From Oscillospiraceae bacterium (GTDB lineage: Bacteria > Bacillota > Clostridia > Oscillospirales > CAG-272): DNA of 64,000 nt. Location: assembly GCA_003343845.1 (NCBI GenBank), contig QAKK01000025.1, positions 66,418 through 130,417 on the forward strand, in the 5' to 3' direction. Both the position numbers and the translations under genes were made by a program. The notes beneath the pieces are model-generated. The model searched no databases, was not told the DNA's origin, and saw only the letters and a list, made by a program, of their open reading frames with translations. Of this stretch, positions 3,699 to 54,953 are shown in pieces. Position 1 is the stretch's first letter; each line of letters begins with the position of its first letter.

Positions 3699-3724
3699 AA
3701 TCTGCGCTGAAAAGATATCAGCAT

Positions 3725-3801: not shown

Positions 3802-3835
3802 AAAAAGAAGACGCCGTGCGCGTCTTCTTTTTTTG
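3802..3835 (+). terminator. intrinsic terminator after tRNA-Pro
   Basis: AAGAAGACGC-cgt-GCGTCTTCTT hairpin followed by a T run. Confidence 0.75.
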
Positions 3836-3875
3836 CGTTCGGGTTTATTCCGATGCATCAAAGCATCGCTTTGCT

Positions 3876-23163: not shown

Positions 23164-23311
23164 ATTTTTTAAAGAAAATGTGGGACGCATGCAACCTCCC
23201 GTTTGTTATATAGAGCAGAAGTAGATTTTCGCGATAAAACGCAGCGGTTTCCCGCCGAAATACGCCGTTCCGCTTGCGATGTGCTTCAATCTGAAAAAAG
23301 TGAGGGAAGAT

Positions 23312-23710
23312 ATGAAAAAACTTTGTTCTGTAATTTTGGCATGTCTTTGCATTGTCGTCATGTGCCTCGGCATCTCCGCAGAAGGCTCGGCGATGCCGCT
23401 TTGGGACAACTTCGATAGTTTGGTAACAAAAATCACATTTTCCGGCACATCCGGTTTGGCATCTGCTTCGATCTCCGATTCAACCTACTCGGCGGATGTC
23501 ACCGGAATGCTGACCGTATACAAACAGACAAAAGCCGGTTGGCTGTTTATCTGCCGTGAAACCGGAGAATCAAACCGCGGCGTTTTGAGCTTAAGTGCAA
23601 ATTTTACAGGTGAAAGCGGCGCGTACTACAAGGCAGAGTTCAGCGTGACGGTTACAAAAAACGGCGTCAGCGAACCGGCTACCAAAGTTGCCTACAAAAC
23701 TTGCCCATAA
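23312..23710 (+). CDS. small secreted hypothetical protein (132 aa)
   Basis: Signal peptide MKKLCSVILACLCIVVMCLGISAEG and GAGGGAAG RBS. AT-rich gene. Confidence 0.65.
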   Translation: MKKLCSVILACLCIVVMCLGISAEGSAMPLWDNFDSLVTKITFSGTSGLASASISDSTYSADVTGMLTVYKQTKAGWLFICRETGESNRGVLSLSANFTGESGAYYKAEFSVTVTKNGVSEPATKVAYKTCP

Positions 23711-23808
23711 ATCCAATCCGCAGTTGATGTCCCGCTCGGCGGCGGACTTCCGATGAAGTCCGGCGGGAAAAGACAATTATTTATATTGCTATGAAAGGAA
23801 ATCAAGAC

Positions 23809-25107: not shown

Positions 25108-25116
25108 AATAATATT

Positions 25117-26403: not shown

Positions 26404-26579
26404 AACGTATTGCGCTTGGCGCTTGTGACGCGGCGGCATCGCTGACCGCAGACAAGCGAAAAGAACTGTTGACCGGGCATTCGGCGTTTTATCAGGACTG
26501 TGTCCTGCTCGGCATCACGCCCTATGAGACGCCCTATGAAAAACAGGTTGCCGACCTTGTAGCAAAGTCAAACGGATAG
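26400..26579 (+). CDS. possible 59-aa ORF translationally coupled (ATGA) to the LRR gene
   Basis: ATG 26400 overlaps TGA 26401-26403. The product is MKRIALGACDAAASLTADKRKELLTGHSAFYQDCVLLGITPYETPYEKQVADLVAKSNG. It is below the 60-aa cutoff of the ORF track and no homology was recognised. Confidence 0.3.
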   Translation: MKRIALGACDAAASLTADKRKELLTGHSAFYQDCVLLGITPYETPYEKQVADLVAKSNG

Positions 26580-26602
26580 CCCGGTTATGCCGCACACACA
26601 CA

Positions 26603-26632
26603 AAAAGCACCACCCTCGGGTGGTGCTTTTTG
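26603..26632. terminator. bidirectional intrinsic terminator
   Basis: AAAAAGCACCACCC-tc-GGGTGGTGCTTTTT between convergent genes. Confidence 0.8.
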
Positions 26633-26640
26633 TGTTCTGT

Positions 26641-30222: not shown

Positions 30223-30290
30223 AGCTCTCTCCTTCGAAATATTTGCCCAAACACACATTTTCAGCACAATAAGGGCATTTTCTGTATCTC

Positions 30291-30319
30291 ATTATACATC
30301 TCCCCCCAAATGAAGTCAA
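30291..30319 (-). promoter_or_regulatory. promoter TTGACT-17-TATAAT of the GLUG-protein gene
   Basis: Minus strand TTGACT at 30319-30314 and TATAAT at 30296-30291. Confidence 0.6.
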
Positions 30320-30759
30320 GGGAGGAGATTTGGGCGCTTTGACATCTTTGAAAAAGTGACGATTTTGTATTTTTGTGCAACATGAATAATTGTTCGTGGC
30401 AATTTCGCAAAATTTCGGCATTGTTTTTTGGACGAGATACACAAATCCAGTCAATTTCAAGTCAAACTTTCAAAACAGTCCGAAAAAATTTGTGGCGCTG
30501 TGCAAGGGGGAATTTCTCCGTTCTGCACAAAAAGGAAACATTTGTTTCACGGATGTGAACTTCTTGCACCGAAAAGCGGGGGGAGCTTGGCTCTCTGCAA
30601 GACTCCTTCCGTCGGCTCCGCCGACACCTCCTAAGTGAGGGAGGTAAATGTCAGGGCGGTACGGGGGAGAGTCGGCGTATTCTTAGGCTTTCATTGGGGG
30701 AAAGCTGCACGTTTCTAAGGCTTCCCTTGGGGGAAGGCTTGGAGGCGCAAGGGCGCAAA

Positions 30760-30795
30760 AAAAGAAGAGAGCCGAAGCTCTCTTCTCTTTTTGCT
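30760..30795 (-). terminator. intrinsic terminator of the first S-layer-type gene
   Basis: Minus strand AGAAGAGAGC-ttcg-GCTCTCTTCT followed by T7. Confidence 0.8.
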
Positions 30796-30806
30796 TTGGG
30801 ATTGGA

Positions 30807-33800
30807 TTACTTGGTGATAACTCTGAAGACGATCGTCGTAGCAACGCCCGAAGCCTCAGTCTTAGCACCGTAGTAGTGAACGTTTACAGTTACAGGAGCC
30901 GTGCCGTCATCAACTGCAGGAATCGTAACTGTCTCGTTCCGGAAGTCAACCATCATCTGGTTGAGAACACCCTCGGTCTCAGCCGTAATGTCTTCAACGA
31001 CATCACCGTTGATCGGGAATGCAAGGTCGCCCTTATCGGTCTCAGCAGCATAGTCATACTTCTTGCCGATCGCTTCCGTGTACTTGACACCTGCGAGGTA
31101 AGCAGCACTGTAGTCATAGTCCGCAGTGTCGATATCGGTCAGATCCAGCGTGATAACCTTTGCCTTGAGGTAGGTTGCATTTGCATTCTCGGTACCGCCG
31201 AAGCCGACGAACTCGCCGTTCATAACAAGGTGGTCGAAGCAGATTGCATTGCCGTCCTTACCGCTATGGTTCTTCTTACCATCGCAGAGATCCATGCTCG
31301 TCTTGATACCTGCAACGAGTGCCTTGTAAATATCAAGCGTGGTGCCGAGCTTGGTGTAGTTGCCGACTGCAGCGAACACATTCTTTGCATCTCTCTTGAG
31401 AACGGTGCCTGCCGCATTAGCAAGCAGCTTCAGATTAGCATCGGTATACTCGATCGTCTGATCTGCAGCCGTCTTCAGGGTCTTCAGGTCAAAGAGATCC
31501 TTGACCACGAGAACGAACTTGCCGTCTGCATTCTCTTCGATATCATAGGTGGTGTTGGGCATCACCATGAAGTAGTTTGCCGTCGTGGTTGCGCTCTTGC
31601 CGCTCCAGGTCTCAAGGTTGTCCTTGTTGCTCTTGTCCAGAACGAACACGAACAGATCGGAGCTTGCAGCGTAGAAGGTAGCCGCCGTACCAACGAACTT
31701 ATTGTTGTCACCCAGAGGCGAGTAAGCGCCGACTCTGGTTGCAACAACACCGGTATCACCGCCGATGGCGATGAAGCGCGTGGTGTCGGTGTAGGTCTTA
31801 CGCTGCTTCTTATCTGCAGCCATGATTGCTGCATCATCATCCAGCGAGATCTCGTAGATGTAGCTGGTAACCTTTGCAGCGGAGGTCAGCGTGATACCGT
31901 TTTCGCCGCGACCGGAAGCAACGACCTTGCTGCCGCCCTGCATCTTGTCAGCGACAACCATTGCGCCGTCCTTCTCAGAAACGACTGCAACGATGTGATC
32001 CTGGGTATCCAGAACTGCCTTAGCAGCTGCGAAAGCAGCTTCCTTGACAGGATCAAGCGTCAGACCCATATCCTTGAACGAAGCCATGGATGCAACATCG
32101 GTGGTCACGTTGAAGACTTCCTTCGTTGCGTCGTAATCCGAAGCAACGCCGGAGATGTAGCCGACTTCCCACTTACCGGTGGTCTTGTCGAGGACTGCAA
32201 CAGCAGCGCCCTTGTCTGCAACATAGACGCCTGCCTTGAGCGCTGCATTGTACTGGTCCTTCGTCAGATCCAGAACAGATGCAACCGTCTCGGCATCGGT
32301 CGAAATGATTGCATAGTCATAGCCTTCGCTCGCAGAGGTGGAATCCTTGGAAATGGGAGACATCTTTACGATCTTGCCGTCGATCGCAAGGAACTTAACG
32401 TTGTCCTTGCCGACTTCAAGCTTGCCGATGTAATCCTTCTTGATGTCCGCAGGCTTTACAGCTACAGCCATCTTGTAGGTGGTGCCGCTGATCTTAACGG
32501 TCTCACCGTTGGAAGCAACGGAGGTCAGACGACCGGTCTGGAAGTTGCCGCAGTTGAGGGCAACCGTCAGAATGTTGTCTGCATCGTTGTATGCATAGTA
32601 CACGAAATCGCCGGACTTGACGGTTTCGCCCTCAACGGTTACAGCCTTTGCAGCCTCGCCGTTCTTTCTGGAGACGGCAGCGGTCTTGTCGGTGATGGTT
32701 GCGTTGGAGCCAAACAGCTTGTAGGTCTCGCCGTAGTTTGCAGAGTATGCAGCGAAATCAGCATTCTTGCTGGTGGTGGCATCCTTCGTGTTGAATACCT
32801 TGTACTGACCAAGTACATAGGGCGTGTAGAGAAGCTCTACGACGTCATAGGTCTTGTTGGCGGAAGTATCCGTGTAGCCGTCCTCGATCACGCGGTAAGC
32901 AACCTTGCCGTAGGTGTTGGCGCCGTCTACATCGTAGCCCTTCTTTGCGTCATAGTGGAAGTTCTTCAGGAACTCGTTGTTTTCCGCGCTCGTTGCCGAA
33001 GACCATGCATCGGCAAAGCTCTTGTCGGTGTCGAAGAGCTTCAGATCGAACACGTACTTATCAAGCGAGAACTTCGCGCCGTTCAGCGTCAGAGCCTTGC
33101 TGTCGACTCTGATGTTGCCTGCCTTGCCGAGGTTCTCAACCGTGGTGTAGGTCTCGTAATCGGCATAGACGACATTTGCCTTGGACTCAGCGGGATCAAC
33201 ATTGTACTTGCCTTCGAAATCTTCTGTAGCGCAGTCGATCAGCAGGCTTACGGGCAGACCCATGTAAGAGATCTTCGGGGTCTTCGCGGTGATGCCGAGG
33301 TCAGCTGCGTTGATCTCCAGACCGCCCTCAAGCGTAACAACGTCAAAGTCGTTGTTCTTGTCAGCAGCCTTGAAGTCGACAATTACGGACTCGATCTTGC
33401 CCGAAGCGTAGCCGGACTGCTCCAGCAGCGTCTTGCGCGGGATCTTTTTGCCGTCCTTGCCGATGAGCGCGTCCGTCAGACCGGTATCATCGGGGTACAG
33501 GATCTTGTCGCTGAGCGGGTCAACAACTGCAACCTTCGTGTTGAGCATATCCCAGATGATCTGAGAGGTCTCGCCGCGGGTCAGAGCAGCCTTGAAGTCA
33601 ACCTTCTCAACATTGTCGGTGAGGTTCAGCTTCTTTGCAGCGAGGATATAGCCGTAGGGGTACTTCATGTCAGCGGTCTCATAACCGAGGGCACGAACTG
33701 CCATAACGAGCATATCCTGATAGGTGATCGCGTCATCGGGTCCGAAGACACCGTTGCCGCGGCCGGCAACGATGCCGGCGCCCTGAACGTAGTCAATAGC

Positions 33801-34100
33801 CGTACCGTAAGCGGTGACGTCCTTGAATACGGTGCTCGTCTTTTCTGCGTTCCAGACTTCAACGCGGGTCTCGCCCGAGAGAGTCTGAGCAAAGAAGAGA
33901 GCTGCCTGATAACGGGTAACGCCGTTCTCAAGCATGAGATTGCCCTTCTCATCGCCCTTCATGATCTTGAGGGCAACGAGGTGCTGTGCAGCTTCGGTAT
34001 AATCAGCCTTGCTGTCAGCAGCACCGGTCGTAATGACTGCTGCGCTCAGGATCATGAGCGTTGCCATTACGAGGGCGAGAAACTTCTTGAAATTTCTCAT
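30807..34100 (-). CDS. S-layer-type protein with three N-terminal SLH motifs (1097 aa), paralog A
   Basis: Signal peptide MRNFKKFLALVMATLMILSAAVITTGA. SLH-like segments (AAQHLVALKIMKGDEKGN..VTRYQAALFF; FKDVTAYGTAIDYVQGAGIVAGRG..ITYQDMLVMAVRAL; YGYILAAKKLNL..LTRGETSQIIWDML). AAAGGAGAAAA RBS. Ala/Thr/Lys/Asp-rich. Confidence 0.9.
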   Translation of the reverse strand: MRNFKKFLALVMATLMILSAAVITTGAADSKADYTEAAQHLVALKIMKGDEKGNLMLENGVTRYQAALFFAQTLSGETRVEVWNAEKTSTVFKDVTAYGTAIDYVQGAGIVAGRGNGVFGPDDAITYQDMLVMAVRALGYETADMKYPYGYILAAKKLNLTDNVEKVDFKAALTRGETSQIIWDMLNTKVAVVDPLSDKILYPDDTGLTDALIGKDGKKIPRKTLLEQSGYASGKIESVIVDFKAADKNNDFDVVTLEGGLEINAADLGITAKTPKISYMGLPVSLLIDCATEDFEGKYNVDPAESKANVVYADYETYTTVENLGKAGNIRVDSKALTLNGAKFSLDKYVFDLKLFDTDKSFADAWSSATSAENNEFLKNFHYDAKKGYDVDGANTYGKVAYRVIEDGYTDTSANKTYDVVELLYTPYVLGQYKVFNTKDATTSKNADFAAYSANYGETYKLFGSNATITDKTAAVSRKNGEAAKAVTVEGETVKSGDFVYYAYNDADNILTVALNCGNFQTGRLTSVASNGETVKISGTTYKMAVAVKPADIKKDYIGKLEVGKDNVKFLAIDGKIVKMSPISKDSTSASEGYDYAIISTDAETVASVLDLTKDQYNAALKAGVYVADKGAAVAVLDKTTGKWEVGYISGVASDYDATKEVFNVTTDVASMASFKDMGLTLDPVKEAAFAAAKAVLDTQDHIVAVVSEKDGAMVVADKMQGGSKVVASGRGENGITLTSAAKVTSYIYEISLDDDAAIMAADKKQRKTYTDTTRFIAIGGDTGVVATRVGAYSPLGDNNKFVGTAATFYAASSDLFVFVLDKSNKDNLETWSGKSATTTANYFMVMPNTTYDIEENADGKFVLVVKDLFDLKTLKTAADQTIEYTDANLKLLANAAGTVLKRDAKNVFAAVGNYTKLGTTLDIYKALVAGIKTSMDLCDGKKNHSGKDGNAICFDHLVMNGEFVGFGGTENANATYLKAKVITLDLTDIDTADYDYSAAYLAGVKYTEAIGKKYDYAAETDKGDLAFPINGDVVEDITAETEGVLNQMMVDFRNETVTIPAVDDGTAPVTVNVHYYGAKTEASGVATTIVFRVITK

Positions 34101-39230: not shown

Positions 39231-42200
39231 TCAGTTCTTCACGTCGGCGCCGTACAGCCGCCCGAGCAGCCGCACGACCACCGTCGCCGTCTCGGCGCGC
39301 GTGATCTGTCCGCCGGGGCGCAGCGTACCGTCGTCATAGCCGGAGATCAGCCCGGCTGCAATCGATTTTTGCAGCATTTCCGCCGCCCACGGCGCGATCC
39401 GGTCCGCATCCGTAAAGCCGTCAAGCGACGCGGATTCCGTCTCGTCGACGGTGCCGCCGAGGACGTAAAACGTCTCCTCGCGCGTGATAGCGTCACGCGG
39501 GGCGAAGAGCAGCCGCCCGTCCGGCGTGTCCTTGCCGTGCATCAGCCCCGCGCCGAAAACGGCGCGGACATAGGGCAGCGCCCACGCGGCGATGTCCGCG
39601 CTGTCGGCAAAGGGCAGCTCGGTCTCGGCATACGCTGTCGGATCGAGGTTCAGCAAGCCGCAGAGGATCTTGGCAAACTGCTCACGGCTCAGGCTGTTGT
39701 CCGGGTTGTAGACGGTTCTGCCGGTCTCGTCCTCGCTGCCGCTGACCACGCCCGCAAAGGAGAGCGCGTTGACATAGTAGGACGACCAGTGCCCGGCAAG
39801 GTCGGCATAGCGGTTCGGGTCATACTGCTCCGTGAGCAGCAGCGGACCGACCGTGACGGTGCGCGCTGGGTCGGTCACGGCAAAGCCGAGCAGCGTTTTC
39901 AGCGTGAGCACGCCGTCCGCCGCTTCTGGCACAAGAGTGAGGAGCGCGCGCCCGTTGTACCCGGCGAAATCATAGTATGCGTCATAGGTGTAGGTGACCG
40001 TCGTCTCCGTGCCGTCGGGAGCGGTCAGTATGAACGTGGCATAGGGCGTTTCCGCGGCGGAAATGCCGTCCGCCCACAGCCACAGCCGTCTGCCGACAAG
40101 TCCGGCGCTCGAAAGCCCGGTGACGTTCAGCTCGACCGGGATCGGTTCGGGCACAGGTTCCACAATCGGCTCGGCAGGTTCGGTGGATTCGGAAGTTTCA
40201 GAGGTTTCCGCCGGTGCGGTCGTTTCAGCGGGCGCGGCGGTCTCCGCGGGCGCAGTTGTTTCAGCGGGCGCGGCGGTCTCTGCGGGTGCAGTGGTCTCCG
40301 CGGGCGCGGTTGTTTCGGCGGCGGGAGCGTCCGTTTCCGCTGCCGTTTCGGCAGATGCGGTCGTTTCCGCGGCGGGCAGGACGCGCGGCATCAGCACAAA
40401 CGCGCCGCCCGCAGCGATGCCGCCGGTCTCCGCATAGGAGAGGGTATAGTCACCGCCGACCGCCGCCGCGCCGTTTTGCAGCAGACCGTCCAGCTTCAGC
40501 GGGGAAGCAGGCTCGCCGAACAGCGCCGGGATCACCAGCGTGCGGTCCGCCAGCACAATGGCAATCCGCCCGCGTGCGGCGGGCAGGGGCTCTGCCGGGG
40601 TCTCGGCGGGGTCGGTGGATTCTGCGGATTCTTTTTCGGCAGTATCATCGGCTTCGCCGGGGATCTTAATATCGGTCTGTGCAAAATAGAAGGTGTTGCC
40701 GCGCCGCGCACTGCCGATCGCCGCATTCTCGCAGCGGACCTCGGCAAGGTCGCCGTAGTACACCTCCGCGCCCTCCGCAAAGGCGCGGACAGTCAGCGAA
40801 GCCGTGCCGTCCGCCGCGGCAAGCAGGAGCGTCTGGTCGGCGCGCAGCTCGTCCACGGTATCGGTGACGCGCAGGTAGCAGGACGCGCGCAGGGTCTTAT
40901 CGCCGTACACGGTCTCAACCGTGAGGATGCCGCCGCCCTTGACTGCCGCAGGCGTGAAGCGGATCTCGCCGTCGGCGACTGCGGCGCTGCCGAGCGCATC
41001 GGAGATTGTGACGGTGGTGTTTTCCGCCGTCAGAACATGTTTAAGCGTCTCGCCCGCGCCGTTCGTGACGGTCGCGGTGAGGGGATATACCGCGCCGGCA
41101 AGCAGGGTCAGCGCAGGCTGTTCCAGCGTCAGCCGGGGCGCGGCGGACGCGGTTTCAGTCGTTTCATAGAGCGCCGCCGCGTTGGAAACCTTGCGTTCGC
41201 TGCCGTCGGAGGGGCGGTTTTGCACGGTCGCCTTGCCGTCCGCAAAGGTGACAAGCGCGGTCGAGCCGCCGCCGTCGAGGTTGATCGCGTCGGTGCAGCC
41301 GAGCGCCAGGAGCGTATCGGCAAGCGCCGTGAGCGTCAGCCCTGCGGCGTAACCGGTGCGTCTGCCGTCGGTGACGAAGAGCAGATAGCTGCCGTCCGCG
41401 CGGATGCCGAACGCCGTGCGGGGCTGCCGGGTCTTCTCATGCTCCTCGTTCACCACGCCGTCGACGGGCTTGCCGTCCCGCAGGATGACGTCGCCGCCGC
41501 CGATCGCCGTGACCGCGTCGGTGAAATCGCTCTCGCAGGCGACGCGCACCGTGACGGTCTCGCCGACCGCAAGCGCGGCATAATCCGCCGCTGTCGCAAG
41601 CGTATCCGGCACGGTCAGGACGGCGCATCCCGCGGGGATCTCGCCGTCCTCGACGCCTTTGCGCACTGCGGTGACCTCGGCGCGCACCTCGCCGCCGAGC
41701 GTGACGGCGTCGTCGAGCGCGAGGATATACTCGGTCGCGGCAAAGCCGGTCAGCGTCGTGGTCTCGCCGTAGTCGCGGGTGAGCAGGTAGACGCCGTAGA
41801 CGCCGGGATATTTGTTGAGATGGCTGACCGGGAGGGTCGCGTCGCCGATCCCGATCGTGACCGTCTCACCGATCTTGCCGAAGATCGCATTGCCGTCCTT
41901 GTCAAAGCCGACGGCATCGCGGTTGTCCGACGAGGAGAGCAGCCGCCCGTCCGTGAGCAGCACGCCCATCGGCACGCCGGTGTACAGGCTGAAAAAGTCG
42001 GCGTTGACCGCTGCGGTCAGGGTCTCGCCGTCTGCGGCTGCCATGCCCGCCAGGGTCGAGAGCTTTTCGCGGCTGTGCAGGGTCGTGCCGAGGTTGACGG
42101 CAGCGATCCGCGCGCCGTTCGCGGGCGATGCGGTGACGGTGAATGCGGTCTGCACAATCTCGCCAGGTGCGCGGTTCTCATAGCGCGTGAGCGTTGCCGC

Positions 42201-42452
42201 CGCGCCGAGCGGAGTCTCGGTCATGCCCGTGATGCTGCCGAAGGCGCCGAGCCTGTCCGGGTAGACCGGCGCCGCCGGTTCGGCGGCAGGGTCCGGATCG
42301 GTCTGCGGTTCGGTTCCGGTATCGGAAGCGGTCACTGCCGTGGCGGCGGTTTCCGCCGCGGTAACGGTTTCGGCGGCGGCAGGAAGCAGCAGGGACAGCG
42401 CAAGTGCGAGCGCCGTCAGTGCCGCGGTAATTCTTTTGTATGTATACGTCAT
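39231..42452 (-). CDS. phosphodiester glycosidase (NAGPA/DUF2233) family surface protein with Thr/Ala/Pro/Glu repeat linker and three C-terminal SLH motifs (1073 aa)
   Basis: Signal peptide MTYTYKRITAALTALALALSLLLPAAA after AGAAGGAA RBS. AVNADFF...RQPRTAFGIRADGSYLLFVTDGR...INLDGGGSTALV. C-terminal FADSADIAAWA..., FTDADRIAPWA.... Confidence 0.88.
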   Translation of the reverse strand: MTYTYKRITAALTALALALSLLLPAAAETVTAAETAATAVTASDTGTEPQTDPDPAAEPAAPVYPDRLGAFGSITGMTETPLGAAATLTRYENRAPGEIVQTAFTVTASPANGARIAAVNLGTTLHSREKLSTLAGMAAADGETLTAAVNADFFSLYTGVPMGVLLTDGRLLSSSDNRDAVGFDKDGNAIFGKIGETVTIGIGDATLPVSHLNKYPGVYGVYLLTRDYGETTTLTGFAATEYILALDDAVTLGGEVRAEVTAVRKGVEDGEIPAGCAVLTVPDTLATAADYAALAVGETVTVRVACESDFTDAVTAIGGGDVILRDGKPVDGVVNEEHEKTRQPRTAFGIRADGSYLLFVTDGRRTGYAAGLTLTALADTLLALGCTDAINLDGGGSTALVTFADGKATVQNRPSDGSERKVSNAAALYETTETASAAPRLTLEQPALTLLAGAVYPLTATVTNGAGETLKHVLTAENTTVTISDALGSAAVADGEIRFTPAAVKGGGILTVETVYGDKTLRASCYLRVTDTVDELRADQTLLLAAADGTASLTVRAFAEGAEVYYGDLAEVRCENAAIGSARRGNTFYFAQTDIKIPGEADDTAEKESAESTDPAETPAEPLPAARGRIAIVLADRTLVIPALFGEPASPLKLDGLLQNGAAAVGGDYTLSYAETGGIAAGGAFVLMPRVLPAAETTASAETAAETDAPAAETTAPAETTAPAETAAPAETTAPAETAAPAETTAPAETSETSESTEPAEPIVEPVPEPIPVELNVTGLSSAGLVGRRLWLWADGISAAETPYATFILTAPDGTETTVTYTYDAYYDFAGYNGRALLTLVPEAADGVLTLKTLLGFAVTDPARTVTVGPLLLTEQYDPNRYADLAGHWSSYYVNALSFAGVVSGSEDETGRTVYNPDNSLSREQFAKILCGLLNLDPTAYAETELPFADSADIAAWALPYVRAVFGAGLMHGKDTPDGRLLFAPRDAITREETFYVLGGTVDETESASLDGFTDADRIAPWAAEMLQKSIAAGLISGYDDGTLRPGGQITRAETATVVVRLLGRLYGADVKN
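40205..40320. repeat. tandem ~18/36-bp coding repeats (encode ETTAPAETAAPA... linker)
   Basis: Reiterated GGTCTCCGCGGGCGCAGTTGTTTCAGCGGGCGCGGC units on the plus strand. Confidence 0.75.
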
Positions 42453-42493
42453 GCGGGATTCCTTCTTTTGCGGTTTTGCGGAAAAGCTGTGTA

Positions 42494-42520
42494 TACCCTC
42501 GATTGACAAGAGCAGATACG
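42494..42520. repeat. proximal arm of perfect 27-bp inverted repeat in the glycosidase leader
   Basis: TACCCTCGATTGACAAGAGCAGATACG. Confidence 0.95.
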
Positions 42521-42741
42521 GTTTTTCGGGGCGGAAACCGCGCCTGCCTTTGTTTTCCTCATTGGCGGGCTGATGCCTGTCTGCTTCGTCAGCCTCGTCC
42601 GGCACATTTCCGCGCCCGAAAAACTCCGAAGGACTTTCCGGTGAGGAAAAATTGGGGTCGGCGAGGAAGAGGACGAAGGTGTGCCGACCGCCCACCAAGG
42701 ACGATGACGATGTCCGGCGCCAACTTTTTGCCGCCGGAAAG

Positions 42742-42768
42742 CGTATCTGCTCTTGTCAATCGAGGGTA
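42742..42768. repeat. distal arm of perfect 27-bp inverted repeat
   Basis: CGTATCTGCTCTTGTCAATCGAGGGTA, the exact reverse complement of 42494-42520, 221 bp away. Confidence 0.95.
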
Positions 42769-42773
42769 CTCTC

Positions 42774-42802
42774 ATTGTAGCACACACGCATCGGCAAGTC
42801 AA
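42774..42802 (-). promoter_or_regulatory. promoter TTGACT-17-TGcTACAAT of the glycosidase gene
   Basis: Minus strand TTGACT at 42802-42797 and TACAAT at 42779-42774. The predicted start falls at the outer edge of the distal IR arm. Confidence 0.6.
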
Positions 42803-42869
42803 AAGAAATTTGCGGAAAGCCGCCGTGACGGGGAAGTGAAGACGGGGGGAATCACGCATCAGCAGGGTA

Positions 42870-43075
42870 CGGCTCCCTTTTAGGCTTCCCCGGTGGGGAA
42901 GCTGGCGCCGTAGGCGACTGATGAGGGATTGTACAAAGCAAAACCTCGCACCATGCTGTGCCGACTGCCTGCAAGCCCTCATCCGTCACAGGATGTTTTC
43001 CCATCGGGAAAACTCCGCGAGGCGCAAAGCGTCTCGTACACCTCTCCCCACCGGGGAAGGCTTGGTTCGTTCGCG
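42870..43075. repeat. mosaic repeat cluster (H1, H3, inverted H2, H1)
   Basis: H3 at 42918-42984. H2 in inverted orientation at 42989-43047. H1 copies are at both ends. Confidence 0.85.
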
Positions 43076-43104
43076 AACGGAGGCAATACCCCCGCATAGC
43101 AGCA

Positions 43105-43133
43105 AAAAACCTCCCGACTTCGGGAGGTTTTTT
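43105..43133. terminator. bidirectional intrinsic terminator
   Basis: AAAAAACCTCCCG-actt-CGGGAGGTTTTTT. Confidence 0.8.
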
Positions 43134-43151
43134 CTTGTTTTCAGCAAAAAC

Positions 43152-43994
43152 TCAATAATAGAACACGTGGTTGCCGATGGTCTCGATATACTCGCGGTTC
43201 TTCTCCATCCAGCTGCCGCTGCTGACGCGCCCCGCGCAGAAGTACAGCGCGTTGTCCACGACCTCGACGCCCTCGAGCACCGCCTTGGCGGCGCGCACCG
43301 AGCTGTCGGTGGGGTCATTGTAGATCGAACCGGTGGCGACCGGCGAGAACTGCGTGCCGTATTTGCGGTCGAAAATGACGCCGTAGACCGTGTCCGGGAA
43401 CGAACCGTCCTCGGTGCGGTTCATCACGACGTTGCCCACCGCAATCTGCCCGCGGAAAGGCTCGCCGCGGCTCTCCGCCGAAATGATGCGGGAAAGCCAG
43501 TACACGATGTCGCTGTCATAGAAGGTGTCGCCATGCTCAAGAGCGGTCGGCGTGCCCGTGAGGTACACCGCCTTCTCGGCGCCGTTCCACGTGCATTCCA
43601 GCGAGTAGATGCGGCTGATCGTGCGGATCGGCACATAGATCGTGTCGTCGATATTGCGGTTCTTCGCAAGCTCGGAACAGAGGATTCTTGCGTTCGCCTC
43701 AATGTAATGTTCGTCTGCCTTCGCCTCGATCGTCATGCCGAGCGAAGTCGCGACCGAAACGCCGCGGGAACCGTCCCACTCAAACGTTGCGTCCGGGTCT
43801 GCTGCGAGAATACCTACACGATAGGGGATGTACGCCGTGCCGTCTGCCAGCCGTGCGCCTTCTACGGGGTTGCTGTTGATATAAAGGTCAATGGGGGTAC
43901 CGAAATTTTCGGAAGCCGCGCAGGTTAATGACATCAGCAGCAGGGAAAGCACCGTGACCGTCAGCCAGAGCGCCGTCTTTTTGCATAATTTCAT
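43152..43994 (-). CDS. SleB-type cell wall hydrolase (Hydrolase_2) with N-terminal copper-amine-oxidase-like stalk domain
   Basis: Signal peptide. The N-terminal half has YIPYRVG..., YVPIRTISRIY. The C-terminal half has ISAESRGEPFRGQIAVGNVVMNRTEDGSFPDTVYGVIFDRKYGTQFSPV. Confidence 0.88.
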   Translation of the reverse strand: MKLCKKTALWLTVTVLSLLLMSLTCAASENFGTPIDLYINSNPVEGARLADGTAYIPYRVGILAADPDATFEWDGSRGVSVATSLGMTIEAKADEHYIEANARILCSELAKNRNIDDTIYVPIRTISRIYSLECTWNGAEKAVYLTGTPTALEHGDTFYDSDIVYWLSRIISAESRGEPFRGQIAVGNVVMNRTEDGSFPDTVYGVIFDRKYGTQFSPVATGSIYNDPTDSSVRAAKAVLEGVEVVDNALYFCAGRVSSGSWMEKNREYIETIGNHVFYY

Positions 43995-48686: not shown

Positions 48687-51023
48687 TCAGTTGCGGATGG
48701 GGACCAGGTCACGGGCGACGATGTACTGCTTCTGTCCCGTGTAGTAGTTGATAACGGGGCAATAGGTGTACGGCATGTTGTTGTCGATCTCCGGCTCGTC
48801 CATGTAGACGCCGAGGCGCTTGCCGAGCGACCAGATGATGGTGCCCTCACGCGGCGTCGCGCCGACATTGGTGCCCATGACGGGCAGCGTCAGGAAGTCT
48901 GTCTGACTATCGCCCTTCAGCTCACTGAACTCAACCTGGCACCAGCCGATCTGATGCGCGTAAACACTGCGTTCCGCCACGGCGATCGCCTGCTCGATCG
49001 TGCACTTGTTGTTCGGCGAGAGCGTGGTGTCCGACGTGCCCTTGATGAGGTCAAGCGCGTTCATGAACGCCATGGATTCCACCGCCCAGCTCTCGAGCTG
49101 TGCGTTGTCCGCGTAGTTTGCCAGCTTCGAGGTGTAGCTCGTGTAGCTGTAATCGGAATTCTTCTCGATATAGCGCAGCGTGCGGTAGAGGAAGGTCGCC
49201 ATCTGCTGGCGGTTGAGCGTGGCATCGGGAGAGAAGGTGGTCGCCGAGGTGCCGGAGGTGATGCCTGCGGCATACGCCTTGAGGACATAGGGACTGTTCG
49301 TGTCCGTAAAGGTGTTCGCGGCGGCGGGCGTGATGGTCTTGCCGGTCATCTCCTCGGCGAGGCGCACCACCACGGAGCAGAACTGCAGGCGCGAGATGTT
49401 CTTCGTGTAGTCATTGCCGAGCAGATCGAGATCCAGCAGGTTGTCGTTGAGCGCGAAGTTGACATCGCTTTGCGCCCAGGCGCTGGTCTTGGCGGTGTTG
49501 CGGAGGCGAAGCGTGAACATGCCCGCCTGATCCTCGGTGCTGCTGAGCGCGAGCGTCTCGCGCATCTGCAGCGCGGCGTTGACCTCCTGCTGATAGTGTT
49601 CCAGCGTGCTGTCATTGCCGCTGAGGGTGAGATCCTTCTCGGTCAGATGCTGCTGCAGGTAGCGGTCGGATCTGCCGCAGACGTCGCAGCTGAGCCAGTA
49701 GACATGCATGCCCGCCGCGTTGACGCCGATATACGCCTCATCGGTGGCAAGCTCGTCGTACAGCGTGGCGTGGGTAAACTCCATCAGCTTCTCAATCGGC
49801 TTTGCCTTGAAGTTTGCGGAGACATGATTCGGATTATACTCGCATTTGCCGCAGATTGCGCAGGAGTAATACCACCGCGGAGCGGTCTGGCAGTTCGCAA
49901 AGGTGTAGACGCGGTCGGCAGACCGGATCTGATGAGTGTAGACATGCCCGGGGCACCAGTCCTTTGTGGCGGCAGCGCCGCCTGCCTTCTGTGCGGCATA
50001 GACATCATTGCCCGCATACACCTTGATGCTATAGGGAATGGAATAACCGCGCCCCTCCGTCATTTTTTTCGCAAATTCAGCCACGGAGGACTCGGGGATG
50101 TACAAAGTCGCATCGGTCGTGCAGAACTGGAGGTCGCTGCGGCTTTCCCAAAGCGGCGAATGAAACACCGGGTCGTGCAGCTCACCGTCCATACGGCCGA
50201 CAAAGGTGTAGACATCCACCTTGTCGCTCAGCCAGATCTCCTTCAGATAGGGCTTCCACACAATGACCCAGGCGAAGCCGTCCGCGCATTCGTGGTTGTA
50301 GAAGTCGCTGTCGTCCACATCCATGATGAGCGTGCCGACGTCGTCATATGCGTCGAGCGTGGCGAAGTTATAGCCTTCGCCGCGATGTTCTCTGTCCATG
50401 ATGACTACGGTTTTGCCCTTGTTCTCGGGGTTTTTCACATCCGCCTCTGCCTGCGTGCGTGCCGGATAGACGGCGCGGCGCGCTGCGGCAAGCGCGGCGG
50501 CGGTCTTTTCCTGCTTGGCGGCAAGCTCGGCGCGTTCCGTATCGGTCATGCGCTCGCCCTCAATCTTCAGGCTGACCTGCAGGGTTGGAAAATAGGGTGC
50601 GCTGGTGCGGGCGGTGGCAGGCTGCCCATTGACCGTGGCGGTGAAGGTGTCCGCCGTCACGACCGTGTCGCCTTCAAGCATTTTGTAGTTGGCGCAATAG
50701 CCCTTCGTCGTGTCAAAGGCGAGCTTGATCGTGACGAGATAGGTGGTGCCGGCGCGGAAGAGAAAATCGTCCTCGGTCTCCACATCGTCGCCCGCCCACT
50801 CAGTGTACATAATGGTGGCGCCGGCAGCCATCAGGTCGATGTTGCCACTCTTGATGGAGCGGACGGTGACTTCGGTCTCCATTTCGCGGGAGTCGCCCGC
50901 CTTCGGCATGTCAAAGACGATGTCGATATGATTGAGCTTGGTGGGCTCGGCGGCGGATGCCGTCAGCGGCACAAGGGAGAGGGCAAGTGCCGCGATAAGT
51001 AAGAGGGATAGAATCTTCTTCAT
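48687..51023 (-). CDS. secreted SLH-domain protein (778 aa) with Cys-rich CxxCG modules
   Basis: Signal peptide MKKILSLLLIAALALSLVPLTASA. It has SCAICGKCEYNPNH and SCDVCGRSDRY. SLH-like segments: FTDTNSPYVLKAYAAGITSG..LNRQQMATFLYRTL and YADNAQLESWAVESMAFMNALDLIKG. Confidence 0.85.
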   Translation of the reverse strand: MKKILSLLLIAALALSLVPLTASAAEPTKLNHIDIVFDMPKAGDSREMETEVTVRSIKSGNIDLMAAGATIMYTEWAGDDVETEDDFLFRAGTTYLVTIKLAFDTTKGYCANYKMLEGDTVVTADTFTATVNGQPATARTSAPYFPTLQVSLKIEGERMTDTERAELAAKQEKTAAALAAARRAVYPARTQAEADVKNPENKGKTVVIMDREHRGEGYNFATLDAYDDVGTLIMDVDDSDFYNHECADGFAWVIVWKPYLKEIWLSDKVDVYTFVGRMDGELHDPVFHSPLWESRSDLQFCTTDATLYIPESSVAEFAKKMTEGRGYSIPYSIKVYAGNDVYAAQKAGGAAATKDWCPGHVYTHQIRSADRVYTFANCQTAPRWYYSCAICGKCEYNPNHVSANFKAKPIEKLMEFTHATLYDELATDEAYIGVNAAGMHVYWLSCDVCGRSDRYLQQHLTEKDLTLSGNDSTLEHYQQEVNAALQMRETLALSSTEDQAGMFTLRLRNTAKTSAWAQSDVNFALNDNLLDLDLLGNDYTKNISRLQFCSVVVRLAEEMTGKTITPAAANTFTDTNSPYVLKAYAAGITSGTSATTFSPDATLNRQQMATFLYRTLRYIEKNSDYSYTSYTSKLANYADNAQLESWAVESMAFMNALDLIKGTSDTTLSPNNKCTIEQAIAVAERSVYAHQIGWCQVEFSELKGDSQTDFLTLPVMGTNVGATPREGTIIWSLGKRLGVYMDEPEIDNNMPYTYCPVINYYTGQKQYIVARDLVPIRN

Positions 51024-51290
51024 GGCGTTTCCTCGTTTCCGATGGTGTGACCCTCTGCCGGGCAGAGGAGCTTCTATCGCTATTATAACGCGCATGCAGG
51101 GCGCGGCACAAGTCTTTTTTCAAGAAAATTTCGGCAAAAAAGCGTCGCCCGCGTCCGGATACGCGGACGCGGGCGGGGATATTGGGAATCCGCTGCTTAG
51201 TGCGTGAACACCTCATCCGGCGGCTACGCCGCCGCCTTCCCCGCTGGGGAAGGCTAAGATGCTGTGGGAGCAAACCCACAGCACGCGGCA

Positions 51291-51788
51291 TTACCCCAGC
51301 GCTTTCCGGACGCGGCGGATAACTTCTTCGTTATCCGGCATCATGGAGAGGATCACGACATTGCCGCAGGTGACGACGGCGGCGTTTTCGGCATAGCCGG
51401 ACAGCCCTGCAGTGTTCAGTGCGCGCTTTGCCGCGGCGGCGCGCCGCTTAAAGAAGAGCGCGCCGTCCTGCGTGTCGGACGCGCGGTAAAGCCGCATTAC
51501 GCAAAGCTCGCAGAAGTCGCCGGAGAGGGAGGAATAGAGCGCAAAATCCTCGATCTTGTCGCGGAACGCGGGGTAGCCCGCAAGCCCGAGATAATCGTCG
51601 AGAAAACCCGCGTCCGCCGCCGTATCGTACCCGCGCCCATAGCAGAGGATGCTGCCCGCGGGCAGGGTTTCGTCGGCGGCGGTCGCCGACAGCACAACAT
51701 CGTACAGCCGCGCCCTGCCCCCGCAGGAGGACAGGCAGAGCAGTAAAGCGACGAAAAGCAGGATCATATTTAAGTAAAATTTCTTCAT
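51291..51788 (-). CDS. DUF4358-like lipoprotein
   Basis: Lipobox LSSCG. 165 aa. Family assignment is from memory of DUF4358 architecture and is only moderately certain. Confidence 0.65.
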   Translation of the reverse strand: MKKFYLNMILLFVALLLCLSSCGGRARLYDVVLSATAADETLPAGSILCYGRGYDTAADAGFLDDYLGLAGYPAFRDKIEDFALYSSLSGDFCELCVMRLYRASDTQDGALFFKRRAAAAKRALNTAGLSGYAENAAVVTCGNVVILSMMPDNEEVIRRVRKALG

Positions 51789-51953
51789 ATTATTATAAGT
51801 GTTCGGCGGGATTCCCGCGTGGTGGGTAGGAGGCGGTTTCCGCGTATCTTAGGCTTCCCTTGGGGGAGAGGCTTGGATAGAACGGCACGAATGCGGGCGA
51901 TCCGGCAGTCGACCCCACAGGTGTGTGCGTCCTCTCTGCCTACCGATTCCTCT

Positions 51954-54347
51954 CTACTTCTTTTTGATGTGGATGACGGCGGCGGTCATATCGTCGCGGC
52001 AGAGCGTGTGCCGCTTGGCTTCGGCAAGGATGCGCGCGGCGGCATCGGCGGCGGCGAGATCCGCGCCGCACAGGAATTCGCACAGCCAGAGCGGTTCCTC
52101 GATGTCCTCGGTCACACCGTCGCTCAGCATCACCACGGCGTCGCCGTCCTCGCAGGCAAAGGTGGTTTTTTCGGCGTCCACGTCCTCGAGGATGCCGATC
52201 GGCACGGTGCGCGACCGGATCTTGAAGATGCGTTCGCCCCGCTTGACAAACGAGGGCGCCGCGCCGCTCTTGAAGAACGTGCCCCGCCCGGTGAAGCAGT
52301 CGAGCGCAAACAGATCCACCGTGGTGAACCCCTCCTCGCGGTCGGTGCGCGCCATTGCCGAGAGCAGCTCCAGCGCGGCGGTCACATCGTTGCCGGCGGC
52401 GAGCATTTTTTCGAGGAAAAGCGCAGCTTTCGCGCTCTTTGCGGCGGCGGCGCGCCCGCTGCCCATGCCGTCGTTGACCACCGCGTAGAAGCAGCCGTTT
52501 TTCGCGTCGAAGCTGCGCACGCGATCACCGTTTTCCTCGCCGCCGCCCGCAGCGACCGTGGCGGACGAGGCATCCGCCGAGAAGGTGGGCGCGCCCGTGG
52601 CGATCATGTTGATGCCGCCGTCCGCAAACTCGAAGAGCGGCGGCTCAAACCTGCCGCCGAGCGCCGCGGTGAGCGCCTCCGTGATCGCATCCGCCGAGCA
52701 GTTCATCGCGCTGCCGCCGACGCGGAAGGCGTAGACCTTCTTCTGCCGCGTGCCGAACACGCCGAGACTGTCCGCCGAAAAGCCGATGCGCGTGAGCGCG
52801 GTCGTCACGGCGGCGCGCCCCTCGGTGTCCGGCGTGTAGGCTTCGTCTCCCCTCTTCAGCGCGTCGGTGAGCACGCGGGAGAAAACGGCATAGTCCACCG
52901 CCGAGCGGCGGCTGCCGTCCGCGGCGAGCATTTCGCGGAGCATCCTTGCGTTCTCGCGCTCGATCTCCTCCAGCATACGATCGGCAGAGGTGCAGCGCGC
53001 GCGAAATTCCGGCGGCAGGTCGGCGTGCTCAACCTTGCCGTATTTGTAGAGCTTTGCACTGATCTTACTCAGTGTATCCATGGTCACGGTGTAATCCCTT
53101 TCCCAGCATAAGCTACATGCCGCACAGCGGCGGCAGAACCGGTCACAGACCTTGTCGCAGATGTGACGGACATCGAAGATGCCGATCCGCGTCTCGCGGT
53201 CGGACAGCCCGGCAAACGCGTCGGACATCGCCTCAAAGGTGGCGGAGAGGTCGCGCAGGGTCTCGCGCTCGCTCTTTTCCCGATAGGGCAGCACTTCACC
53301 CGCGGCATCCGGCTTTGTCCGCCTGCCGGTGAAGGGCAGGAGCTTTTCCCCCGCCGCGCCGAGCGGCAGAAAGGAGAGCGCCGTGCCGATGAGGAATTCG
53401 GGCAGAACCGAGAAAAGCAGCGCCGTGCCGCCCGCGAGAAAGCAGAGCGCGGCGAACCCGACGACCCCCGCCGCCGCGGCAAGCCACACGGGGATATGCG
53501 CGCAAAGCATCGAAAACAGCAGCGCAGCCACCGCCGTTCCGGGTGATGCGGCGGGCACGGCGGCAAAGCCGAAAAGCAGCGCAAGCACGCCCGCCGCGAG
53601 GGGATCACGCCGCCGCGCGGCAAGCATCGAGAGATAGGCGGCAACCGCCGTCGCCGCCGAGAACCCGAGCGGCAGGGAAAGCGACGACAGGGCGAACACA
53701 AACGAAACGAGCAGAGCGGCGTGTCCGATCACAAAGCGGGGGCTGCTGTGCGCCGTCGCGGTGGTGTACCCGATATATAAATATGTAAGCGCGGGGCAGA
53801 TCAGCACCGCAAAGCAGACGCCGACGAGGTCGCCGATGGCAAAGCCGCCGGCAAACAGCCGCACCATGCCCGCCGTGAACGCGGCGACGGCGGCGGAGCA
53901 GACGCGCAGCGCCTCGCCCTCGCGGAAGAGGACGGCGCAGGTCTCCTTTGTGAAAAGGCGCGGGCGCACAGGGGCGGCGCGGCGGGGGTCAAACACGAGT
54001 GAAAAGATGAGCCGCAGGGTGACGAGCACGATCACGCCCGCAAGCGACGGCACATTGCCCGCAAAAAGCGCGCCGAGCAGCACGCCGACGGCGAGCGCGG
54101 GGGTGTCCCCGACCCCGGCGGCGACGGCGGCAAGCCCGAGCGGGTAGGTGGAGAGCGGCAGGCGGACGCTGCCGAGCAGGGCGGCAAAGGCGGCGGGCGC
54201 GACGGCGGCGAAAAAGCGGCGCAGGGTGCGCGCGATGCGGGCGCCGTCGCCCTCGTCCGTGCGCTCGGTGATGCGCGTCCGCAGTCCGGCAAAGAAACCG
54301 CCGATGCGGTCTGCCGCGGCGGCGGTCACAGTCTGAAAGTCCTTCAT
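51954..54347 (-). CDS. spoIIE: stage II sporulation protein E (membrane PP2C phosphatase)
   Basis: About 10 N-terminal TM helices, a central regulatory region and a C-terminal PP2C (GDRVRSFDAKNGCFYAVVNDGMGSG...MLSDGV). Confidence 0.93.
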   Translation of the reverse strand: MKDFQTVTAAAADRIGGFFAGLRTRITERTDEGDGARIARTLRRFFAAVAPAAFAALLGSVRLPLSTYPLGLAAVAAGVGDTPALAVGVLLGALFAGNVPSLAGVIVLVTLRLIFSLVFDPRRAAPVRPRLFTKETCAVLFREGEALRVCSAAVAAFTAGMVRLFAGGFAIGDLVGVCFAVLICPALTYLYIGYTTATAHSSPRFVIGHAALLVSFVFALSSLSLPLGFSAATAVAAYLSMLAARRRDPLAAGVLALLFGFAAVPAASPGTAVAALLFSMLCAHIPVWLAAAAGVVGFAALCFLAGGTALLFSVLPEFLIGTALSFLPLGAAGEKLLPFTGRRTKPDAAGEVLPYREKSERETLRDLSATFEAMSDAFAGLSDRETRIGIFDVRHICDKVCDRFCRRCAACSLCWERDYTVTMDTLSKISAKLYKYGKVEHADLPPEFRARCTSADRMLEEIERENARMLREMLAADGSRRSAVDYAVFSRVLTDALKRGDEAYTPDTEGRAAVTTALTRIGFSADSLGVFGTRQKKVYAFRVGGSAMNCSADAITEALTAALGGRFEPPLFEFADGGINMIATGAPTFSADASSATVAAGGGEENGDRVRSFDAKNGCFYAVVNDGMGSGRAAAAKSAKAALFLEKMLAAGNDVTAALELLSAMARTDREEGFTTVDLFALDCFTGRGTFFKSGAAPSFVKRGERIFKIRSRTVPIGILEDVDAEKTTFACEDGDAVVMLSDGVTEDIEEPLWLCEFLCGADLAAADAAARILAEAKRHTLCRDDMTAAVIHIKKK

Positions 54348-54650
54348 TGTATGCAGTTCCTTTCTTTTTTATGTATCTGCATTGTAGGAAATACCGGGCA
54401 AAAAAGCCGTCACATCCGCGCTGTCGGGGCGGGGAATATTTGCGGGACGGGTGGCGACGGTGCGCGGGAAATACGGGGTCGTCCTATTTCCGGGGGGAGA
54501 AAGCGCGAAAGGGGATGCGGCATGCTGAAAAAAGGCGGACGAAAATGCGGGGGGAAGGGACGATGTGCCTTTCGGCTTCCCACCGGGGAAGGCTTGGACG
54601 CGGTGTGTAGGACTTTTCCGCATAAAAATCATTTTTCTTTCAAAAACAAC

Positions 54651-54679
54651 TTGACAAATCCGTATGGACTTGTTATAAT
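54651..54679 (+). promoter_or_regulatory. sigma-A type promoter of tRNA-Thr
   Basis: TTGACA (54651-54656), 17 bp, TGtTATAAT (54674-54679). Confidence 0.65.
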
Positions 54680-54691
54680 ATACTCCGGTTC

Positions 54692-54767
54692 GCTGCTATG
54701 GCTCAGTCGGTAGAGCACATCATTGGTAATGATGAGGTCACCAGTTCGATTCTGGTTAGCAGCTCCA
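54692..54767 (+). tRNA. tRNA-Thr (anticodon GGT), CCA encoded
   Basis: GCTGCTATGGCTCAGTCGGTAGAGCACATCATTGGTAATGATGAGGTCACCAGTTCGATTCTGGTTAGCAGCTCCA, with anticodon loop TTGGTAA. Confidence 0.93.
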
Positions 54768-54798
54768 AAAAGCACTTGCATGTCGCAAGTGCTTTTTT
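54768..54798 (+). terminator. intrinsic terminator after tRNA-Thr
   Basis: AGCACTTGC-atgtc-GCAAGTGCT followed by TTTTT. Confidence 0.8.
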
Positions 54799-54861
54799 GC
54801 GTTTGCGAAACCGCTTTAACATTTGCCGAAAACAGAGCGGAAAATTTATGCGATTTGCCTG

Positions 54862-54890
54862 TTTACTTTCGTTTTTGACTTTGTTATAAT
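54862..54890 (+). promoter_or_regulatory. promoter TTTACT-17-TGtTATAAT of the giant surface protein gene
   Basis: TTTACT at 54862-54867 and TATAAT at 54885-54890. Confidence 0.55.
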
Positions 54891-54953
54891 CTAAACAAAA
54901 CAGATCTATTATTTTTGTCGGGAAACAATCTTTCGGACACCTGGGAGGTAACT

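Follow-up and report, generated by a model that had tools for sequence, protein, structure and literature searches.

A probable MITE copy with a conserved two-arm fold in the leader of a surface glycosidase gene of gut Oscillospiraceae

Classic bacterial MITEs are shorter than 200 bp and AT-rich (PMC2229807). The Correia or NEMIS elements of Neisseria are non-coding, carry terminal inverted repeats (TIRs) of about 25 bp and have TA ends with target duplication; they occupy intergenic positions just upstream of genes, are co-transcribed with these and fold into long hairpins, and no cognate transposase is known for them (PMC10969869, PMC2229807). Inversion of Correia elements has been reported (PMC10969869), and one such element, located immediately after the mtrCDE promoter, has TIRs at which RNase III cuts the transcript (PMC10969869, PMC2229807). 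The RUP elements of Streptococcus pneumoniae, which are 107 bp long, AT-rich and located at TA, have TIRs matching a known insertion sequence and provide the Firmicute precedent: their presumed mobiliser is a trans-acting transposase of the IS630 family, that of IS630-Spn1 (PMC2229807). ERIC, BOX and REP repeats, finally, are dispersed, transcribed, structure-forming intergenic sequences which can alter mRNA stability (PMC10969869, PMC3049150).

The element described here, 271 bp long and located in the leader of a cell-surface glycosidase gene, belongs to a MITE family that is closest in kind to the Correia and RUP elements. With the former it has in common its non-coding nature, TIRs of about 25 bp, TA ends with target duplication, an intergenic position upstream of genes with presumed co-transcription, a predicted fold into long hairpins and the want of a known cognate transposase, and with the latter its setting as a Firmicute MITE at TA with presumed mobilisation in trans. 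It exceeds classic bacterial MITEs in length and GC content, and likewise the Correia elements, which measure about 100-200 bp; where these form a single hairpin, it has a two-arm fold with a three-way junction, and no outward promoter or IHF-type site is detected in it. Its host is a Gram-positive gut Oscillospiraceae bacterium, sequence is not evidently shared with the Neisseria elements, and the likeness to them is architectural only. Unlike for RUP, no insertion sequence with matching TIRs was found. From REP and BOX, which are without long TIRs or TA duplication, it differs in showing the classic hallmarks of cut-and-paste transposition, while sharing with the ERIC, BOX and REP repeats their dispersed, intergenic and structure-forming nature.

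In its geometry, the locus also resembles an entirely different kind of system, the leader invertons of Clostridia. Those of C. difficile at cwpV and flgB have inverted repeats of 20-30 bp and a size of about 150-300 bp, and lie between the promoter and the open reading frame (ORF) of a surface gene; both orientations are present in populations, and the segments are particular to their loci and do not represent insertions that duplicated a target. The window element agrees with these in repeat size, in spacing and in its promoter-to-ORF position at a cell-surface gene, whereas it is seen in one orientation, has an empty site in relatives and has dispersed copies.

The window, by which we mean the whole 64-kb stretch of DNA that was analysed, contains on its minus strand a gene for a protein of 1073 residues with a signal-peptide-like N-terminus, a NAGPA phosphodiester-glycosidase domain and three C-terminal SLH domains (Pfam); judged by these domains, the product is a secreted, cell-wall-anchored phosphodiester glycosidase. 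Its orthologues range from 87% to 39% identity, and the exact protein also occurs on an ENA gut-metagenome scaffold, where the leader is identical to that of the window. In the direction of transcription, the features of the locus are:

42774-42802, minus strand: sigma-70-type promoter TTGACT-17-TGcTACAAT of the NAGPA/SLH gene (promoter scan), in host DNA outside the element
42767-42768, minus strand: TA, promoter-side copy of the probable target duplication (alignment of filled and empty sites)
42742-42766, minus strand: terminal inverted repeat of 25 bp, CCCTCGATTGACAAGAGCAGATACG, the 'B end' (repeat search, comparison of copies)
42634-42741, minus strand: arm I, closed by CTTTCCGG / CCGGAAAG (consensus fold columns 29-137; repeat I2)
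within 42634-42741, minus strand: inner hairpins of arm I, CCGGCG/CGCCGG and GGTCGGC/GCCGACC
42625-42633, minus strand: central hairpin TCC-TTC-GGA between the two arms (consensus fold, helix 5)
42521-42624, minus strand: arm II, closed by GTTTTTCGGG / CCCGAAAAAC (consensus fold columns 147-253; perfect 10-nt repeat I17)
42496-42520, plus strand: terminal inverted repeat of 25 bp, the 'A end', matching the promoter-side repeat exactly in inverted orientation
42494-42495, minus strand: TA, gene-side copy of the probable target duplication (alignment of filled and empty sites)
42453-42493, minus strand: original short leader with the ribosome-binding site (RBS) AGAAGGAA (42466-42459), conserved in element-free relatives
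39231-42452, minus strand: NAGPA/SLH gene, ATG at 42452 (Pfam)

The outer 27 nt of the inverted repeat are perfect (42494-42520 and 42742-42768, with 221 bp enclosed), and a repeat finder extends the arms to 44 nt at 84% complementarity (42494-42537 and 42725-42768). Read along the minus strand, the promoter is followed by gagag, the repeat TACCCTCGATTGACAAGAGCAGATACG (42768-42742), the 221 bp, the exact inverted copy (42520-42494), then tacacagcttttccgcaaaaccgcaaAAGAAGGAAtcccgcATG and the ATG. The TA at the outer limit of either arm is most readily taken as the duplicated target dinucleotide; the element proper thus spans 42496-42766, a GC-rich, protein-less stretch of 271 bp with terminal repeats of 25 bp, and the unit including both TAs measures 275 bp. 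Searched with up to three mismatches, the 27-mer is found in two places only in the 64 kb, one per strand, and without any match in 100 of 100 shuffles; a profile search of the window for further, diverged copies finds this one alone. The sole ORF across the element (42449-42982) runs into host promoter DNA and is impossible in relatives that lack the element. The scan of 1.4 kb around the element (42000-43400) returns the promoter of the gene as the sole sigma-70-like site, and neither the scan nor inspection by eye reveals an outward or internal promoter in the element. A first-pass annotation of this DNA had already noted a 221-bp segment bounded by perfect 27-bp inverted repeats, downstream of the promoter and upstream of the RBS of a surface glycosidase gene, and repeat finder, promoter scan and Pfam bear it out; it was likewise right about the near-consensus promoter at 42802-42774 on the minus strand, about the nested pairings inside the segment, which are present in the sequence and in the repeat finder output, and in seeing the 27-mer nowhere else in the window and no obvious promoter inside the segment.

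That the unit was inserted into a pre-existing leader follows from orthologous loci. Three orthologues were fetched with their flanks: L002 (87% protein identity), L003 (74%) and L004 (72%). All keep the order of genes, ParA - (x) - SleB-like cell-wall hydrolase - NAGPA/SLH - HprK; the promoter is identical and the RBS the same as in the window, but the leaders measure only about 45 nt and have no inverted repeat, and the empty site reads ...CAATGAGAG-TA-TACAGC. In the alignment, the L002 row reads ...GCTACAATGAGAG-TA-TACAGCTT..., against ...GAGAG-TA[CCCTCG...CGAGGG]TA-TACAGCTT... for the filled site in L024 and L083, which are strains of the species that the window comes from; the gap is clean, and the difference amounts to the 271-bp element and a duplicated TA. 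Alignment thereby shows the unit to be an insertion, which three related species lack at this position. The leader in the window has an extra 2-bp 'ca' just downstream of the element (tacacagc versus tacagc). Contigs that carry the element are 98-99% identical to the window over the first 1.5 kb of the gene (98.8-99.2% for L024 and L083), whereas of the empty relatives L002 shows 91.6% nucleotide identity in the same region and the others about 80%. This gap in identity indicates that the insertion is specific to one species-level lineage; within the window's lineage, the element occupies the NAGPA locus in all five or six strains sampled, and the reading frame and RBS of the gene are intact in all carriers. 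A second locus behaves in the same way: a copy in L016 lies at attatga-TA-taatga, L042 has that TA single, and L042 has a copy of its own in the opposite orientation at the next TA, 8 bp downstream of the L016 site. At the level of sequence comparison, this locus is a second, independent proof of TA duplication.

Homologous copies are widely dispersed. A 20-mer of the terminal repeat occurs on four contigs of three GTDB MAGs (two Oscillospiraceae and one 'Clostridia bacterium'), and a degenerate 22-nt form of it on 78 contigs, nearly all of them from human-gut metagenomes; searches with the terminal repeat gave 0 matches in viral contigs and none in a plasmid collection, and one unverified 'Bacteriophage sp.' faecal scaffold holds a 332-bp relative of the element. 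These loci contain the motif at 134 sites and have 39 copies of full length; their flanks fall into 68 distinct clusters, which correspond to about 30 insertion sites. Most full-length copies measure 274-277 bp, a few being shorter (167-241 bp) or longer (304-314 bp), and all are bounded by TA except for a few with a mutated terminal base; the family consensus of the terminal inverted repeat is TACCCTCGATTGACAAGGGCAGA. Their sequences fall into at least three subfamilies: interiors are about 88-99% identical to the window copy in subfamily 1 and about 77-81% in subfamily 2, and in subfamily 3 (L005, L006, L008, L087) the common sequence is limited to some 35-40 nt at each end. The inner ends of the repeats differ (...CACGGTTTTTCGGGG at the 'A' end, ...CACGCTTTCCGGCGG at the 'B' end), so that the orientation of copies can be scored. 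Many contigs stop within the element, as expected of an assembly-breaking repeat, and short-read metagenome contigs attach one flank to differing partners, making linkage across the element unreliable. A literal string search for the motif returned nothing relevant, and we could not find an earlier description of this family from human-gut Oscillospiraceae.

Because the filled site has empty counterparts, because the TA is duplicated and because homologous copies are dispersed, we read the 275-bp unit, with a probability of about 0.87, as one copy of a non-autonomous MITE which inserted at a TA near the transcription start and duplicated it; it has no coding capacity for a transposase, and its 25-bp TIRs are perfect. 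A MITE landed in the UTR was one of three readings put forward in the first-pass annotation, and the empty orthologous sites, the TA duplication and the dozens of dispersed copies speak for it; many dispersed copies with target duplications, which the annotation had named beforehand as the mark of a plain MITE, are indeed what we find. Its transposase would have been supplied in trans, from a gene located elsewhere in the genome. Duplication of TA is the signature of IS630/Tc1-mariner transposition, and some relatives of IS5 and IS30 likewise give 2-bp duplications; here the duplication, as the one feature bearing on the family of the enzyme, points to a transposase of the IS630/Tc1-mariner type. 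A search for an autonomous element, as repeat pairs 1-2 kb apart, gave 0 of 87 loci. The ORFs beside solo repeats encode ABC transporters, a TetR regulator and an MFS protein, with no transposase among them, and no transposase or recombinase domain is present in the window ORFs of at least 150 aa that were scanned (all except a few overlapping alternative frames), in agreement with the first-pass statement that the window has no recombinase gene. Plasmid and viral collections gave no match that could lead to a parent transposase, and the phage collection gave only a further MITE copy, on the unverified faecal scaffold.

Folded as RNA, the leader has a predicted energy of -146.6 kcal/mol (z = -7.3 versus shuffles), with a 27-28-bp helix that closes a multi-branched structure and with the RBS unpaired. 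In the consensus fold of 27 distinct copies, the terminal repeats pair to give the 26-bp helix P1; the other parts are arm I, closed by CTTTCCGG/CCGGAAAG, the TCC-TTC-GGA hairpin, which is invariant in the 27 aligned copies, and arm II closed by GTTTTTCGGG/CCCCGAAAAAC; over the family, 98% of cells are paired. Changes on both sides are seen in 19 of 89 pairs, compared with 0-3 in controls slid by 1-3 columns; four of these pairs are in arm I and eight in arm II. Most of the compensatory changes separate two subfamilies and thus represent few independent events. The consensus reaches -121.7 kcal/mol in the mRNA sense versus -107.6 kcal/mol on the other strand, with 141 G-U versus 17 A-C cells, a comparison that is indecisive because the structure was predicted on the mRNA-sense strand; with this strand folding only slightly better, strand-specific selection at the level of RNA was set aside. 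In these models, folding on both strands fits a palindromic DNA element as well as it fits an RNA. At the NAGPA locus itself the repeats co-vary, with GAG/CTC in the window, GGG/CCC in L024 and a mixed state in L025 and L083 that would give a G-U pair on the mRNA strand; this single case is suggestive of selection, or of gene conversion, acting on the pairing. Taken side by side, the compensatory arms and the co-varying repeats hint that pairing is kept beyond what a decaying passenger would need.

The geometry of the locus had led the first-pass annotation to consider a site-specific invertible segment. As a switch, the 221-bp segment would be flipped by a recombinase, one orientation letting the promoter read through and the other blocking expression, as at cwpV or flgB of C. 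difficile. Perfect 27-bp repeats around 221 bp in the promoter-to-gene interval of a surface protein would suit this, and weak 5-bp terminator-like hairpins lie inside the segment, one per strand; however, the segment includes neither the promoter nor a strong terminator. Contig comparison also gives a single orientation at the NAGPA locus, in 6 of 6 contigs (the window, L001, L024, L025, L083 and, in part, L022), in all of which the B end faces the promoter and the A end the RBS. Orientation is likewise fixed at about 17 other sites with 2-6 contigs each, for roughly 60 junction observations; assemblies give the majority orientation only, and rare flipping would escape such a comparison. Two cases seem to show inversion. 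The flank X adjoins the B end of the element in L010 and the A end in L078, L080 and L086, but L010 is probably a mis-assembly, since its partner flank is mismatched and X occurs with four partner flanks; given this inconsistency, we rejected the case as evidence. In the other, near-identical contigs carry a solo copy of the repeat motif, 21 bp long, in opposite orientations. Against a switch there is, further, the lack of a recombinase in the scanned window ORFs, and the unit is an insertion with TA duplication, its interior homologous at unrelated loci. One orientation at almost every site, together with the lack of a recombinase or transposase in the window, leaves the switch unsupported; we consider it very unlikely, and this extends to a weaker version in which a MITE is able to invert as well, in the way reported for the Correia elements.

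The remaining first-pass reading, a structured leader, holds in one part: the transcribed element should form the long P1. That it evolved as a dedicated 5' UTR for the NAGPA/SLH gene, with the 27-bp P1 tying the 5' end to the initiation region, is very improbable, even though the predicted fold is very stable and backed by compensatory changes, the transcript probably begins at the first bases of P1, and one P1 pair passes from G-C through G-U to A-U, the path expected of selection on a sense-strand RNA. Orthologous leaders, to which the first-pass annotation had proposed to turn, lack the unit in the three nearest cases, and these share promoter and RBS with the window; covariation was seen between mobile paralogues and not between orthologous leaders, and both strands fold well. 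Copies meet promoters with either end (six with the A end, six with the B end) and also adjoin terminators and gene 3' ends, so the element is not a cis-regulator tied to a class of genes. A search of Rfam 15 gives nothing over the element at E <= 10, which accords with the first-pass remark that no known riboswitch class was recognised, and nothing at gathering score for seven other loci. With both orientations, no Rfam match and absence from orthologous leaders, a dedicated riboregulator is unsupported. It is also most improbable that the 22-bp motif TACCCTCGATTGACAAGGGCAG is the primary entity, a protein-binding site or 5'-end hairpin at many transcription starts of which the 275-bp unit would be a spreading doublet. 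Solo copies of the motif do exist, and at five of seven solo loci they start 5-13 nt past a -10 box and are followed by an RBS (L007, L073, L050, L026, L008); yet the 22-nt search pattern had a part in selecting the solos, the empty NAGPA site is without a solo motif, one type of solo would be explained by AGGG microhomology deletion of a full element, and the motif string was not found in the literature searched. A -10-like box 3-12 nt from the TA in 14 of 68 flank clusters compares with 4% of all TA sites and 13% of low-GC TA sites, an enrichment of less than two-fold over the latter and against an imperfect control; with so small an enrichment and so rough a control, a preference for transcription starts was set aside. 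The same was done with the solo motif as a stabilising 5' hairpin, as its hairpins are weak (-4 to -6 kcal/mol) and no better than those of shuffles.

As a MITE copy in the leader, the element is almost certainly transcribed as the 5' UTR of the NAGPA/SLH gene, since the promoter closely precedes it, the RBS closely follows it and it shows no outward promoter. The promoter-side TA lies 6-7 nt past the -10 box, so that transcription is expected to begin at the first bases of the element, and the mRNA would then have its 5' end tied up in P1: the RNA is predicted to form a three-way junction, closed by a 27-bp helix which holds the 5' end and leaves the RBS free. By analogy with the Correia elements, so long a duplex would be a plausible substrate of RNase III or a plausible protector of the 5' end; mRNA stability, and with it expression, may thus change. 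It is conceivable, though on balance unlikely, that the family is a mobile structured 5'-leader module and not just a passive MITE, a view suggested by the compensatory fold, by the tendency of the first base to fall at the transcription start and by the G-U path at the NAGPA locus. If so, the element or its 22-nt solos would be kept for 5'-end protection or RNase III processing, and a transposase-derived regulator might bind them, wiring scattered genes into one post-transcriptional circuit.

A candidate phase-variation switch is here resolved, in all probability, into an ordinary transposon insertion, and the two can be told apart by the empty site that relatives have, by the duplicated TA and by an orientation that stays fixed across samples. 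The family so defined is a GC-rich MITE of about 274 bp with a conserved two-arm fold, from uncultured human-gut Oscillospiraceae; what novelty remains lies in this fold and in the possible role as a portable leader. Members of the family break and mis-join short-read assemblies and create spurious ORF calls, and they would give false positives in screens of gut metagenomes for invertons that are based on inverted repeats. If the element alters the stability or processing of mRNA, it would be a source of strain-level differences in expression among gut commensals, in the present case of a cell-wall-anchored glycosidase.

The 271-bp element (a MITE with 25-bp terminal inverted repeats) and the adjoining promoter are spanned by a 177-aa open reading frame (window 42449-42982, minus strand), which lies at 3471-4004 of the public scaffold L001 and is annotated there as a gene; relatives lacking the element cannot have this frame, and it is almost certainly spurious.

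The intergenic spacer between the cell-wall hydrolase gene and the NAGPA surface glycosidase gene ranges from 277 to 700 bp among relatives, and these length differences are explained by other small palindromic insertions, for example in the element-free relative L004 by a unit of about 130 bp with the ends CCCCTACAGG/CTGTAGGGG and the hairpins GGGCGACCATTGGTCGCCC. The spacer is a recurrent landing site of small repeats. Stretches in this region are:

Window 42830-43150: within the hydrolase-NAGPA spacer
L004 2800-2925: within the hydrolase-NAGPA spacer, element-free relative
L003 2480-2880: within the hydrolase-NAGPA spacer, element-free relative
Window 43104-43133, bidirectional: strong intrinsic terminator 3' of the hydrolase gene, 13-bp stem, AAAAAACCTCCCGACTTCGGGAGGTTTTTT

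This terminator gave rise to weak, spurious matches to Rfam leaders and sRNAs. Elsewhere in the window, very large surface proteins are abundant (22000-34000 and 48687-62813), among them SLH proteins (2632, 1097 and 802 aa), an LRR protein of the BspA type and one with a PPC domain. At 22-26 kb and 30-34 kb the GC content drops to 0.48-0.54, against about 0.61, and these two stretches are possibly acquired DNA. ParA/ParB at 44.8-46.6 kb suggest that the region lies close to the replication origin.

Two independent insertions of the family, oppositely oriented and from different samples (L016 8381-8655 and L042 1-163), occupy neighbouring TA dinucleotides of one promoter region, separated by 8 bp, a pattern suggestive of a local hot spot (ATGA-TA). 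A 332-bp relative of the element, in which both terminal repeats are altered in concert (TACCATCGA... / ...TCGATGGTA), is found at 2420-2751 of MT837146.1 (L087), a record from human faeces deposited as 'Bacteriophage sp.'; it again sits between a -10 box (TGcTATACT) and an RBS, and the scaffold appears to be of bacterial, not viral, origin.

Across the element, one and the same flank meets different partners depending on the contig, as seen for the flanks labelled X, Z and W in L010, L011, L055, L063, L067, L078, L080 and L086; at L057 2850-3124, the NAGPA promoter and the element are followed by an unrelated gene. Such joins are either assembly chimeras formed through the 274-bp repeat or products of real recombination between copies.

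At several loci the terminal motif, 19-22 nt long, occurs alone or truncated, with the remainder of the element missing:

L007 5403; L070 7726; L073 831; L050 5982; L026 8298; L008 5876; L052 1938; L018 1299: solo or truncated motif copies

In five of seven loci the solo motif starts 5-13 nt past the -10 box and is followed by the RBS. The L026 type (TACCCTCGATTGACAAGGGTA) can be accounted for by a deletion in a full element, running from one AGGG microhomology to another. At one locus the 21-nt solo motif, preceded by a TATGCT -10 box and followed by the RBS, reads one way in some samples, TACCCTCGATTGACAAGGGCA (L073 810-831, L054 3148-3169), and the opposite way in others, TGCCCTTGTCAATCGAGGGTA (L049 6260-6281, L020 2501-2522), within flanks that are near-identical across 170-260 bp (1-2 substitutions). 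This difference is a precise, tiny inversion, perhaps caused by hairpin-mediated template switching.

Half or truncated elements are also seen in mid-contig, comprising the B end (the terminal repeat on the promoter side in the window copy) and 45-93 nt, roughly arm I of the predicted fold or less:

L035 8144-8236; L029 665-755; L028 1053-1143; L017 1963-2043; L079 555-635; L085 502-582; L047 2103-2148: half or truncated elements

As these partial elements lie inside contigs, the MITE family decays through internal and one-sided deletions.
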